This document shows, in pieces, positions 52,203 through 56,546 of a DNA stretch of 64,000 nucleotides. The first letter of the stretch is position 1. The number at the start of each line of letters is the position of its first letter. A program made the position numbers and the translations under genes. Source of the stretch: Escherichia coli (GTDB taxonomy: Bacteria > Pseudomonadota > Gammaproteobacteria > Enterobacterales > Enterobacteriaceae); NCBI RefSeq assembly GCF_024502345.1, contig NZ_JALDNN010000001.1; one strand, written 5' to 3'. Under the pieces are notes generated by a model that did not search any database, had not been told where the DNA came from, and saw only the letters and a program-made list of their open reading frames with translations.

Positions 52203-52510
52203 ATGAATAAGAAATTTAAATATAAGAAATCGCTTTTAGCGGCTATTTTGAGTGCAACCCTGTTAGCCGGTTGTGATGGCGGTGGCTCCGGATCTTCCTC
52301 CGATACGCCGCCTGTAGATTCTGGAACAGGGTCTTTGCCGGAAGTGAAACCTGATCCAACACCAAACCCGGAGCCGACGCCTGAGCCAACGCCGGACCCA
52401 GAACCTACGCCGGAACCGACACCTGATCCTGAGCCAACACCAGAACCGGAGCCAGAACCTGTTCCTACGAAAACGGGTTATCTGACCCTGGGCGGAAGCC
52501 TGCGGGTAAC
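52203..52510 (+). pseudogene. sslE: 5' fragment (~100 codons) of the sslE/yghJ lipoprotein gene, truncated by IS-derived sequence
   Basis: [24 protein letters not shown] lipobox and Pro/Glu/Thr repeat region match recalled SslE N-terminus; reading frame then runs into IS30 sequence. Confidence 0.7.
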
Positions 52511-52721
52511 CGAGCCAACAGAATGGCGAAAAGGCCAAAACCGTGCTTACTGGATCAAAATTTACCATTGCGAAAGCTTGTTCTGGAAAAGCTGGAGATG
52601 AAATGGTCTCCAGAGCAAATATCAGGATGGTTAAGGCGAACAAAACCACGTCAAAAAACGCTGCGAATATCACCTGAGACAATTTATAAAACGCTGTACT
52701 TTCGTAGCCGTGAAGCGCTAC
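52511..52721 (+). mobile_element. IS30: Internal fragment of an IS30-type transposase gene (no terminal repeats)
   Basis: Frame encodes [66 protein letters not shown], matching recalled IS30 transposase. Confidence 0.8.
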
Positions 52722-52980
52722 GTTGCTGGTCTGGAGTAATGGGTGTGGCAGAGGGCGTAATCCCCTGGCGCTCTCTCCTGAGCTGGCGTACCCAGCTCTC
52801 AAGCGTAGTAGAACCCACATTCATCGCTTCACTGGCCTGTCGATATGAGTAGCCCTTATCAACAATCAGCTGTGCACATTCCAGCCTGAACTCAGGGGTG
52901 AAACTACGTTTGGTTTTCTTGTTCATTAAGTCACCTGTTTTGTGTTGAGGTGAGAATATCACCTTTAATCAGGTGGCCAA
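52722..52980 (-). mobile_element. IS3-family element fragment carrying a 3'-truncated orfA (helix-turn-helix transposase subunit)
   Basis: ORF 52684..52962 begins with IS3-family OrfA-like sequence ([47 protein letters not shown]) and diverges into antisense IS30 after ...PDQQR. Confidence 0.6.
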
Positions 52981-52982
52981 AT

Positions 52983-53300
52983 TTACTGTGCCACTACAAG
53001 CCGCCTTATATTCACCAGCAGGTTTTTCATCAGTGAAATGGCGCGTCCCACAGAGAGAATTTCAATAAACAGGTTAAGGTCGTTTTGTTTCAGGTAGTTC
53101 AGGAAGTCTGGCTCACTGAGACTTTCCCCTGCCTCCTCGTAAAAGCAGGCAATCGCTTCCATGTTATTCATGTAGGTGCTGATTGCGGCGTACTCGTGTC
53201 CTTCCATCTGTTCAAGGATGACCCTGACAGACTGCATCCGGTCGGTCAGTTTCGCATGTATGTCTGCATATTTAGCCTGACGGGGATTTATTTCACTCAT
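52983..53300 (-). CDS. Hypothetical 105-aa protein downstream of the chemoreceptor gene
   Basis: ORF track; same strand as the MCP gene with a 99-bp gap; no recognisable motif. Confidence 0.4.
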   Translation of the reverse strand: MSEINPRQAKYADIHAKLTDRMQSVRVILEQMEGHEYAAISTYMNNMEAIACFYEEAGESLSEPDFLNYLKQNDLNLFIEILSVGRAISLMKNLLVNIRRLVVAQ

Positions 53301-53399
53301 TATTACTGTCGCCTGTAAATAACCGGCACAGTGCGAACACCATGCCGGGAGATTATGGCTGACAAAACGGGAACGACAGGATCCCGCTGTTGTCGGGGG

Positions 53400-55082
53400 T
53401 CAGAAGGTTTCCCAGTTCTCGCTGGCGTGTTGTTCCGTTTCACGAACGGACTTTACCGCTTTAACCTTACTCTGCGGGCTGGTGTTGCTGATTGTCGGTA
53501 CTATGGTATTTTTTCGTTCAGCATCGCGTTTTTTATTATCACGGAGACGAAATACGCTCACCTTCTCCTGCAGAATCCGTGACTGATTCTGCAACGAAGC
53601 GGCAGTGGCTGCAGACTGTTCCACCAGAGCTGCATTTTGTTGGGTGGTGCTGTCTATCTGGCCCATGGCGCTGTTAATCTGGGCAATACCATCTCCCTGC
53701 TCACGACTGGCCTTGGCTATTTCGTCAATCAGCCCTTCCATGCTCTGGACGTTACTGATGATATCCTCCATTCCCCTGTCTGCTTTTTCAACCAGGGTAC
53801 GGCCGGATGCAATGCGGGAAACGGAGTCATCAATGAGCTCTTTTATTTCCCGCGCGGCAGAAGCACTGCGCTGAGCCAGATTACGAACCTCTCCGGCCAC
53901 AACCGCAAATCCACGGCCGGACTCGCCGGCGCGTGCGGCTTCCACGGCAGCATTAAGCGCGAGAATGTTGGTCTGGAAGGCAATCCCGTCGATGACCTGG
54001 ATGATGGCTGTCATTTCAGACGAGGTGTCGTAAATCTCCTGCATCCGGGAAGACACCTCACTCATGACCACTCCATTCTGTTTCACAATGGCCGTTGTTT
54101 CTGTCACAAACTGGTAAACCTGTGCTGTATTGCCGGCAGTATTGTTTATGGTGGCCGTCAGTTGTTCCAGAGTGGCCGCCGTCTGTTCCACACCGGCAGC
54201 CTGCTCTTCGGTGCGGGCTGACAGGTCTGTATTACCACTGCTGATTTCTGCTGCAGTCAGCGCAATATTGTCCGCTCCCTGACGTACTTCCCGGACGGTG
54301 TTACTCAGACTCCCGCACATATCACGCAGTGCCTGCATCAGTTGCCCCAGCTGGTCCTGTGAGTCCACTTTAATCTCCACACACAGGTTACCTTCCGCCA
54401 CTTCCCGGGCAATCCGGACGGCTGAAATCAACGGACTGGTAATGCTTCTGGTGATCAGCCATGCCAGCACACCTCCCAGAAGAAGCGCCATACACCCAGT
54501 GATGATCAGTGTCAGTATGGCTGCCGTACCATTATCAGCGATAACTTCACCCGCTTTATCTATGCTTGTTTTTTCGTATTCCACCAGTGCCTGCAGACTG
54601 GCCATGTAGTCATTTATGATCGGTAATTGCTGTGACTCAATGAAGTGGTTCAGGGCTTCACGGTCCCCCTGCTCACTGATCTGAAGAGCTTTTACCAGGG
54701 TATCTGCATACACCTGACGCTTTTCACCAATGGTTTTCAGCAGCTTAATACCCTGCTCTGAAGTAAGCTCCCTGTTAAATTTATCCTGCAGTATATCCAC
54801 GCGAGCACGGGTTTTCTCTATCCGCTGCTGTGCATATGTCCTGATATCCGGGTCCCCCGACGTCAGCAGAACCAGTCCAAGCGCACCGTTTGATTCAATA
54901 CCGGTCTGCCATTCATTCGCCATACGCTCCTGCAGAAGATAATTATTCATCACGCGATCGGTGGAAGTGAGCATAGAGTTCAGGTACCCCACTCCGGTCA
55001 CTGTCATGATCATGATAAGAACCAGAATTAGGCTGAAGCTGCCAGCCAGCCTGATACCCACACTAAAGTCTTTGATTTTCAT
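53400..55082 (-). CDS. Methyl-accepting chemotaxis protein (orphan, island-borne)
   Basis: 560-aa ORF: TM1, periplasmic domain, TM2, HAMP, conserved MCP signalling region ([51 protein letters not shown]). Confidence 0.85.
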   Translation of the reverse strand: [560 protein letters not shown]

Positions 55083-55380
55083 TTTATTACCCGTGAATGA
55101 AGCTGGTTATTTCGGACCCCGGTGTCCCTGACAAATAACTGGTGCCTCCAGACTTATTTATGAGGAATCATATTTTGATTAACGAGATCTGTTATCGGTA
55201 TCAGTGTGCCTGAATGGAGTATGTCAGACACGACCACTTAATACCCCGAAGCGTCCTGCCAAAAAAGACCAGACGGTGAGGGCTGGTCTGAAATCTGACA
55301 ATGTCTATGGGGTCTACCGTTGCGTAGAGGGCTGTCACAACGTTAATAAGATTATCGGCAACAGTCCGGTAAACTTTAAC

Positions 55381-56030
55381 GGCACTGTTGCAAATAGTCG
55401 GTGGTGATAAACTTATCATCCCCTTTTGCTGATGGAGCTGCACATGAACCCATTCAAAGGCCGGCATTTTCAGCGTGACATCATTCTGTGGGCCGTACGC
55501 TGGTACTGCAAATACGGCATCAGTTACCGTGAGCTGCAGGAGATGCTGGCTGAACGCGGAGTGAATGTCGATCACTCCACGATTTACCGCTGGGTTCAGC
55601 GTTATGCGCCTGAAATGGAAAAACGGCTGCGCTGGTACTGGCGTAACCCTTCCGATCTTTGCCCGTGGCACATGGATGAAACCTACGTGAAGGTCAATGG
55701 CCGCTGGGCGTATCTGTACCGGGCCGTCGACAGCCGGGGCCGCACTGTCGATTTTTATCTCTCCTCCCGTCGTAACAGCAAAGCTGCATACCGGTTTCTG
55801 GGTAAAATCCTCAACAACGTGAAGAAGTGGCAGATCCCGCGATTCATCAACACGGATAAAGCGCCCGCCTATGGTCGCGCGCTTGCTCTGCTCAAACGCG
55901 AAGGCCGGTGCCCGTCTGACGTTGAACACCGACAGATTAAGTACCGGAACAACGTGATTGAATGCGATCATGGCAAACTGAAACGGATAATCGGCGCCAC
56001 GCTGGGATTTAAATCCATGAAGACGGCTTA
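55381..56030 (+). mobile_element. IS26: IS26 (IS6 family), 3'-truncated: left inverted repeat GGCACTGTTGCAAA and 196 of 234 transposase codons (tnp 55444..56031)
   Basis: Match to recalled IS26 terminus and transposase MNPFKGRHFQRDIILWAVRWYCKYGISYREL...; identity ends at GACGGCTTA. Confidence 0.88.
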
Positions 56031-56513
56031 ACGGACATAACCTACATCAGGACCCACGAAGGCTGGCTGTATCTTGCCGTGGTGGTTGATCTGTTCTCAC
56101 GCAAAATTATCGGCTGGTCCATGCAATCCCGGATGACAAAGGACATTGTCCTGAACGCACTGCTGATGGCCGTATGGCGGCGTAATCCCCAAAAACAGGT
56201 GCTGGTTCATTCGGATCAGGGCAGTCAGTACACAAGCCATGAGTGGCAGTCGTTCCTGAAATCACACGGCCTGGAGGGCAGCATGAGCCGTCGCGGTAAT
56301 TGCCATGATAATGTGGTTGCAGAAAGCTTTTTCCAGTTGTTGAAACGCGAACGGATAAAGAAAAAGATCTACGGAACGCGGGAAGAAGCCCGCAGCGATA
56401 TTTTTGATTACATCGAAATGTTTTATAACAGTAAGCGTCGGCATGGTTCCAGCGATCAGATGTCACCGACAGAATATGAAAACCAGTATTATCAACGGCT
56501 CGGAAGTGTCTAG
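56031..56513 (+). mobile_element. 3' fragment of an IS3-family orfB (DDE transposase C-terminus), abutting the truncated IS26
   Basis: Frame encodes DITYIRTHEGWLYLAVVVDLFSRKIIGWSMQSRM...HSDQGSQYTS...MSPTEYENQYYQRLGSV. Confidence 0.8.
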
Positions 56514-56546
56514 ATTATCTGTGGCGATTCATATCTTGGAATATAA

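Follow-up and report, generated by a model that had tools for sequence, protein, structure and literature searches.

Microhomology joins probably shaped a decay scar between sslE and pheV in an Escherichia coli lineage

In the 64,000-nt stretch of Escherichia coli DNA analysed here (the window), the glcA-sslE-gsp-pheV locus most probably bears a genuine decay scar specific to its lineage, made by microhomology joins in which IS fragments were passive. We mapped four novel joints (J1 to J4) to their parental sequences: all of them fall inside IS30, an IS3-family element, IS26 or ordinary genes, each with 2-5 bp of microhomology, and two of the four are inverted joins. The combined chance of overlaps this long at the joints is about 6e-7.

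The sslE (yghJ) gene starts with the ATG at 52203 on the plus strand, directly 3' of glcA, and its blastn match to reference genomes stops at 52510, that is at sslE nt 308. The resulting remnant of 102 codons and 2 nt, close to the cut after about 100 codons described in an earlier note on this DNA, encodes a signal peptide with the lipobox LAGC and a Pro/Glu/Thr-rich linker, as does the N-terminal part of SslE/YghJ. Positions 50000 to 52510 are collinear by blastn with glcA-sslE of EC596, NT1N25 and PM4-5 (99.9% for the first two), and past the equivalent of 52510 both EC596 and NT1N25 carry on into sslE. The DUF4092 and M60-like zinc-metalloprotease domains of SslE, a protein of ~1,520 aa, are missing, the rest of the gene being unmatched anywhere in the window.

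A chimeric ORF of 132 aa (52203-52601, plus strand) is made of 103 residues of SslE and then 29 that are read out of frame from IS30. It is exactly the protein WP_274621882.1, annotated as 'hypothetical protein' and in fact a pseudogene product, which is encoded also in GCA_050022275.1 and ENA ERZ27268145. Protein P0014 and its five Logan contigs, considered as further copies of the sslE junction, were rejected as plain sslE fragments ending at contig ends.

The secretion genes 3' of sslE are gone from the locus, as the earlier note had claimed. We used the PM4-5 locus as a query (L036 21512-39090, ~16.3 kb without its own IS), and neither megablast nor blastn found the remaining sslE, pppA, gspS2 or gspC-M in the whole 64-kb window. 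Likewise, no T2SS-beta operon (pppA, gspS2, gspC-M; L036 27178-38942) lies between sslE and pheV.

At J1 (52507-52510), sslE nt 308 is joined to IS30 nt 392 over TAAC; the position agrees with the range of 52505-52515 proposed earlier, the AACCG microhomology proposed with it does not. The IS30 piece (52507-52721, plus strand) spans nt 392-606 of 1221 and is 100% identical to IS30 of L001 and L005. It is internal and without terminal repeats, unlike an intact IS30, which has 1221 bp, an inverted repeat at each terminus and a transposase of 383 aa. J2, placed earlier at 52721 and mapped here to 52719-52721 (TAC), connects IS30 nt 606 to nt 280 of an IS3-family piece on the opposite strand. This left end of the element (52719-52998, minus strand; nt 1-280 of 1258 bp) has a truncated orfA and a true terminus at 52998. 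It is 99.97% identical to C 236-04A (L001, 8001 onward) and 96% identical to the complete 1258-bp IS in PM4-5, and contains an Rfam match to isrC (52808-52930, 140 bits).

Two cargo genes follow on the minus strand. The first is a 105-aa ORF (52983-53300; annotated WP_016243822.1 in L001), whose last four codons and stop fall within the IS3-family terminus; it has no family match, neither in NCBIfam nor as a Pfam hit on record. The second (53400-55082) encodes a methyl-accepting chemotaxis protein (MCP) of 560 aa with 4HB_MCP_1, HAMP and MCPsignal domains, and this module is also found on plasmids, for instance pEc4097.

An IS26 remnant (55381-56030, plus strand) is identical to IS26 over exactly 650 of 820 nt, so that the end of identity predicted at 56030 is exact. 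The left terminal repeat is retained, with the same left flank as in L001; the right 170 nt are gone and the transposase is cut to 195 aa, whereas the intact element has 820 bp, a 14-bp terminal repeat at either end and a Tnp26 of 234 aa. At J3 (56029-56030, TA), IS26 nt 650 meets the IS3-family element at ~nt 758. The right part of that element (56029-56531, plus strand; ~nt 758-1258, ~500 nt) carries the 3' end of orfB (stop codon at 56513), matches NCBIfam transpos_IS3 at positions 221-369, and is 99% identical to L001 6301->5799, inverted with respect to the segment before it. Its terminus at 56531 is fixed by the empty site in L022 and L024. Both IS3-family termini (52998 and 56531) are thus present, apart and in opposite orientations, while nt 281 to ~757 are missing from what would be a complete element of ~1.25 kb with TG...CA termini and orfA/orfB connected via an A6G frameshift. 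Altogether, blastn confirmed the order and orientation of the IS fragments and cargo genes named in the earlier note, and its statement that no IS30, IS26 or IS3-family copy is complete. The IS termini at 52998 and 55381 are common to other genomes and a plasmid; they are old insertion borders and, in our analysis of the joints, the only true IS termini left.

Protein look-ups for these remnants returned other contexts as well. The truncated 195-aa Tnp26 appeared in many of them, spuriously, because the look-up matches the exact protein: there, unrelated Tn3-family insertions or scaffold gaps happen to fall at the same codon, and among the loci encoding it only L032 has J3. The 130-aa product of the orfB fragment (orfB') was found mostly in loci with stress-tolerance-type genes (protease, KefB-like, thioredoxin, YfdX); J3 is absent from the three that we aligned (L052, L053 and L055), where a related element is split by IS30.

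The mosaic does not end at 56546, as first thought, and reaches the island border. Positions 56547-57001 (plus strand) hold the 5' 455 nt of a gene for a secreted-looking protein of 392 aa, WP_016240260.1 in relatives; this piece matches L001 down to 5329, and the gene goes on in L001 and L032. At J4 (56997-57001, GTTAT) it is fused to a P4-type integrase gene of the pheV island (56997-57548, minus strand), of which the 5' 184 of 417 codons remain. The truncated integrase has an NCBIfam integrase domain and is 99.9-100% identical to its pheV-adjacent counterpart in C 236-04A and G5, where the full gene adjoins intact pheV. In the window it lies 196 bp from the 3' 49 nt of tRNA-Phe (pheV; 57745-57793, minus strand), an attachment-site repeat, which is the arrangement of a pheV-integrated island. 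This repeat separates the decayed island from a second one carrying hsdR/S/M. ET220 and EC596 have the identical 49-mer in an identical layout. ARAGORN detected no complete tRNA anywhere in the window, and we rejected the reading of this piece as a cut pheV gene.

The precursor can be approached through relatives. In C 236-04A and ABWA45, IS30, IS26 and the 392-aa gene are complete, and a full integrase gene stands beside intact pheV. Compared with this state, the MCP module of the window is inverted, and the orientation of the orfB'/392-aa gene/integrase block toward pheV is unchanged. The IS30 fragment is oriented relative to the orfA fragment (orfA') as in RM10042 (L005), unlike in the closest relatives by sequence (L001, L047), which makes the ancestral arrangement uncertain. 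Neither a single inversion nor homologous recombination between inverted IS30 copies reproduces its orientation on paper, starting from the C 236-04A arrangement. Among 5,426 complete E. coli genomes, none turned up as a sister carrying the immediate precursor, and across 25 kb of flanking core even the nearest ones reach only 99.1% identity; for these reasons we infer the order and number of events.

We propose that the ancestor had a pheV-integrated island bearing an accessory module, which would have comprised the IS3-family 5' part, IS30, the IS3-family 3' part, the 105-aa ORF, the MCP gene and IS26. The locus would then have been reshaped by several illegitimate joins, RecA-independent and microhomology-mediated, which came about by breakage and end-joining or by replication template switches. 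Lost in this way would be sslE from nt 309 on, all of the T2SS-beta operon, the island's distal part and, between the 392-aa gene and a point midway in the integrase gene, another ~5.7 kb; the 3.3-kb MCP module would have been inverted. On this view the IS sequences are passive debris of elements already in the island and not agents. At least two separate events took place, because J4 also exists where the IS3-family piece is missing, on a second haplotype with IS-free upstream sequence (L022 and L024). Homologous recombination between IS copies was rejected, the partners at every joint being non-homologous.

It is conceivable, though we doubt it, that J1, J2 and J3 come from one replication-based event of the fork-stalling/template-switching or MMBIR type, and J4 from a separate deletion. 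In this event, synthesis would have jumped from sslE nt 308 to IS30 nt 392 and copied 215 nt; a strand switch to IS3-family nt 280 would have led it backwards over 3.3 kb to IS26 nt 650, and a last switch would have returned it to the orfB' segment. From the C 236-04A arrangement, the order in the window needs exactly such a forward, forward, reverse, forward path, with all switches other than the first within ~1 kb of the prior template and 2-4 bp of microhomology at each; the stepwise route from that ancestor takes two inversions and deletions erasing two of the resulting joints. However, one inversion and deletions are enough if the ancestor had the IS30 orientation of RM10042. Moreover, L032 has J3 without J4, its IS26 having another left flank, and in L038, which has J2, the IS3-family terminus is flanked differently, so that the joints have separate histories if these contigs are real. 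Both are metagenome contigs crossing repeats, possibly chimeric, and only they show J1-J3 occurring separately, whereas J4 alone is clearly seen (L022, L024). Were a single event true, it would at once have deleted >16 kb, added a 215-bp piece templated on IS30 and turned round a module of 3.3 kb, giving a bacterial counterpart, in a natural commensal E. coli lineage, of the complex MMBIR-type rearrangements of human genomes.

The earlier note had favoured successive IS-mediated deletions. More than one step is indeed supported by the second haplotype carrying J4; deletions alone are insufficient for the observed order with respect to the closest module relatives, because two joints are inverted. 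That the transposases of IS30, IS26 or the IS3-family element made the structure by successive adjacent deletions and inversions appears improbable, even though the region is full of IS remnants and neighbouring lineages show clean IS-bounded truncations of sslE (by IS26 in NT1N25, by an IS3-family element in PM4-5). When a transposase drives an adjacent deletion or inversion, the new joint falls exactly at an IS terminus that stays intact, with a target duplication where applicable. The four novel joints all lie elsewhere (IS30 nt 392 and 606, IS26 nt 650, IS3-family nt 280 and ~758), and since all four are internal and carry microhomology, IS mediation is unsupported. No complete IS is left that could have acted, and every joint made by a transposase would need later trimming to erase it. 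IS fragments around a deletion are no proof that transposition caused it, and the position of each joint should be checked against the IS termini.

The joints recur outside the window as exact 31-mers. J1 was found in GCA_050022275.1 and ERZ27268145, and a derived form, J1', with 28 nt less of sslE, in GCA_050023715.1 and ERZ28615276. J2 is present in 11 loci, including human-gut metagenome contigs of several projects, J3 in 2 loci and J4 in 10. The sources are two isolate drafts at NCBI, Logan assemblies built from independent runs and, at ENA, several metagenome assemblies for which different assemblers were used. An assembly artefact, in which contigs were misjoined via repeated IS sequence, is hardly credible: every joint involves repeated elements and none occurs in the 5,426 complete RefSeq E. 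coli genomes, but the joints sit at 2-5 bp overlaps and not at shared k-mers, a derived variant exists, and the same joints in independent isolate drafts, ENA metagenome and Logan assemblies exclude the chimera that the earlier note had named as its refutation.

Judging from the genes left, the strain is predicted to be unable to make the SslE mucinase or its secretion system, producing at most a predicted lipoprotein stub of 132 aa. With a truncated integrase, the island is also predicted to have lost the ability to excise. Strains of this lineage are expected to lack both SslE and T2SS-beta, a point of practical interest given that SslE/YghJ is a colonisation factor and vaccine candidate.

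The gene loss recorded by the scar is real but ordinary: the locus is known to be unstable, and the case adds to other examples of decay at the pheV hot spot. Short-homology, RecA-independent illegitimate recombination is known in E. coli; complex rearrangements of the MMBIR type are known from human genomes. The window resembles such microhomology and template-switch rearrangements in the 2-5 bp overlaps at all joints, the short templated segment of 215 bp and the inverted joins between sites <1 kb apart; it differs from them in that the mechanism is read from scars only. With adjacent deletions and inversions mediated by IS26 or IS30 it shares IS26 and IS30 sequence, deletions and an inversion, but the defining intact IS terminus is missing from every junction.

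Other truncations of sslE are closer in kind. In C 236-04A and ABWA45, sslE is joined at nt ~2300 to a cbtA fragment; in EC596 it is joined at nt 2151 to a gspL fragment; in NT1N25 it is abutted at nt 1710 by an intact IS26; and in PM4-5 a complete IS3-family element lies within the gene, with CTT flanking both its ends. All of these have an sslE pseudogene at the same locus, often with the integrase, the MCP module and IS26, yet their breakpoints differ and none has any of the four junctions of the window. Loss of sslE and T2SS-beta beside pheV has been documented before: T2SS-beta adjoins the hypervariable pheV locus and was lost independently in K-12, by an internal gspD-K deletion, and in Crooks, where all gsp genes are replaced, the SslE secretion pathway being likewise inactivated beside the pheV tRNA island site (PMC3707838). 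In the window, by contrast with these two strains, sslE itself is cut at nt 308, the entire operon is gone, and what stands in its place is a scrambled remnant of the island containing four microhomology joints.

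In this E. coli chromosome segment, the hyb, gss and glc genes up to glcA (50035-51717) are followed by sslE and then by island DNA. Collinearity with the island-free reference PM4-5, whose gene order is glcA, sslE, pppA, gspS2, gspC-M (yghD), pheV and yqgA, ends at sslE nt 308 (window 52510). The ~16.3 kb that follow this breakpoint in PM4-5 (remaining sslE, pppA and gsp genes) find no match across the 64-kb window, and the first sequence common to both again past the gap is the 3' part of pheV (57736-57792).

By aligning the window with both parental sequences of each joint, we defined four joints, J1-J4. 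The 5' 308 nt of sslE (52203-52510, plus strand) lead into nt 392-606 of the 1221-nt IS30 (52507-52721, plus), with sslE nt 308 and IS30 nt 392 overlapping in TAAC at J1 (52507-52510). At J2 (52719-52721, TAC), IS30 nt 606 meets nt 280 of an IS3-family element. The following segment (52719-56030, mixed orientation), 99.97% identical to the C 236-04A locus (8001-11312), contains the left 280 nt of this element with its true terminus at 52998, a 105-aa ORF, a 560-aa chemoreceptor (MCP) gene and IS26 nt 1-650. J3 (56029-56030, TA) connects IS26 nt 650 to IS3-family nt ~758; the segment beyond it (56029-57001, plus; C 236-04A locus 6301->5329) is inverted relative to the preceding one and holds the final ~500 nt of an IS3-family element (terminus 56531), followed by 455 nt from the start of a 392-aa gene. 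Finally, J4 (56997-57001, GTTAT) joins nt ~455 of that gene to int codon ~184. From there, 56997-57792 (minus) comprises the first 184 codons of a P4-type integrase (417 aa at full length), the DNA upstream of it and the last 49 nt of tRNA-Phe, at 99.9-100% identity to the pheV-adjacent integrase loci of C 236-04A and G5. A different island (minus) extends from 57793 onward.

The sslE/IS mosaic described in the earlier note is confirmed. Of its interpretation, successive IS-mediated deletions, the truncation, the gene loss and the multi-step history hold, but a transposase origin of the joints is not borne out: none of the four lies at an IS terminus, and they are microhomology scars. Overlaps of at least 4, 3, 2 and 5 bp would jointly arise with a probability of ~6e-7 if the joins were random. 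At J2 and J3 the partners meet in inverted orientation; J4 is a simple deletion, ~5.7 kb long as measured on C 236-04A. The two genuine IS ends that persist, at 52998 and 55381, are flanked as in C 236-04A and ABWA45 and are old insertion borders; a comparison at the level of gene order finds this module, identically arranged, in plasmid pEc4097. IS26 is also broken at nt 650, where its identity ends in the window, by Tn3-family transposons of two kinds, whose terminal repeats are GGGGTTTGAGGGCC... (loci L025, L026, L033 and L034) and GGGGTCTGACGCTCAG... (L028 and L029), a coincidence that is probably a selection effect of exact-protein look-up.

Read outward from pheV, the island of both C 236-04A and ABWA45 comprises int, IS1, an autotransporter or IS elements, the 392-aa gene, an IS3-family 3' part, a complete IS30, an IS3-family 5' part, the 105-aa ORF, the MCP gene, a complete IS26 and a DUF905...cbtA' module abutting a differently truncated ~2.3-kb sslE. 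The 5' (344 nt) and 3' (916 nt) parts form one 1258-bp element, less the 2-bp IS30 target duplication, split by IS30 just past its A6G frameshift motif. All three IS3-family and IS30 fragments of the window can be derived from this composite, which may in turn be a hybrid: the 5' part shares 96% identity with the IS of PM4-5 and RM10042, to which the 3' part does not align at nucleotide level; at other loci, a different 5' part is joined to the same IS30 and 3' part.

RM10042 has IS30 at the identical nucleotide in reversed orientation. Such same-nucleotide insertion into related IS3-family elements (after the A6G motif, nt 344; C 236-04A locus 6715-7936, RM10042 locus 5610-6830) in opposite orientations suggests an IS30 hot spot. 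In further loci (L052-L055), an IS30-split IS3-family element also carries a group II intron, inserted 15 nt away from the J3 breakpoint position, and it borders DegP-like protease, M48 peptidase, PsiE, KefB-like, thioredoxin and YfdX genes, a set that looks like a heat- or stress-tolerance locus. Within the IS3-family 5' end of the window, the Hfq-binding sRNA isrC (Rfam) gives a full-length match at 52808-52930 (minus; 140 bits, gathering score 39); because the match spans the leader and orfA start, this family appears to be a model of an IS3-family left end.

Compared with C 236-04A, the orfB'/392-aa gene/int block is unchanged in orientation with respect to pheV, the MCP module is flipped, and the 215-bp IS30 piece retains the ancestral chromosomal orientation on the opposite side of that module. 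Deletions alone cannot produce this arrangement. We infer that it required two inversions plus deletions, one inversion plus deletions provided that the ancestral IS30 had the RM10042 orientation, or one replication event with multiple switches.

Searches by exact protein and by exact 31-mer located the joints in independent data; all four are missing from complete RefSeq E. coli genomes. J1 occurs in GCA_050022275.1 (54-kb contig, 100% identity over 51500-55457) and ENA ERZ27268145, J2 in 11 loci, among them gut metagenome contigs of PRJEB10878 and PRJEB15371, J3 in another contig of GCA_050022275.1 and in metagenome contig L032, and J4 in 10 NCBI, ENA and Logan loci. A derived J1' (GCA_050023715.1, ERZ28615276) lacks 28 nt more of sslE but joins the same IS30 nucleotide, which shows that decay has continued within the lineage. 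J4 has a history separate from that of J1-J3, as it also lies on a ~1% divergent haplotype (L022, L024) where the IS3-family piece is missing and the native upstream of the 392-aa gene is present. L032, a metagenome contig crossing IS26, is weak evidence for J3 without J4: its 392-aa gene continues, hit by IS1, with plasmid-like genes left of IS26. In a metagenome scaffold (L038, ERZ28663998 scaffold_1211, 9929-10252), J2 stands beside uvrC, pgsA and a 200-aa ORF, not the 105-aa ORF; the cause is either another copy in the genome or a mis-join via the 280-nt IS end.

The 49-nt tRNA-Phe repeat opens a second island of pheV type (57745-64000), ~95% identical to G3/10 and AW1.7, with a '5-fold beta-flower' protein of 16-residue tandem repeats (58070-58414) and a type I restriction-modification system made up of hsdR (58630-61746), hsdS and hsdM in that order. 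In ET220 the integrase, the 49-nt repeat and an hsdRSM island are laid out in the same way, and in EC596 the 49-mer immediately follows yghD. Given these layouts, the 49-mer is probably not a broken pheV gene but an attachment repeat that separates two pheV islands in tandem.

The 105-aa ORF, whose final four codons are supplied by the IS terminus, and the 560-aa accessory chemoreceptor together make up a module (52983-55380) between the IS3-family end and IS26. It occurs in pheV islands as well as on large plasmids (pEc4097; plasmid hits H7-H15) and is frequent in human-gut metagenome contigs. The chemoreceptor scores well under the cut-offs of the Tar, Tsr, Trg and Tap models.

The chimeric ORF (52203-52601; RefSeq hypothetical protein WP_274621882.1) encodes 103 SslE residues (signal peptide, lipobox, Pro-rich linker) and 29 unrelated ones. 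The lineage is predicted to be SslE-negative, because the metalloprotease domains and T2SS-beta genes are missing from the locus. T2SS-beta adjoins the hypervariable pheV locus and was independently lost in K-12 and Crooks (PMC3707838), and at least four further sslE truncation alleles are present among other complete genomes; the locus is therefore a new allele of a well-described kind of event.
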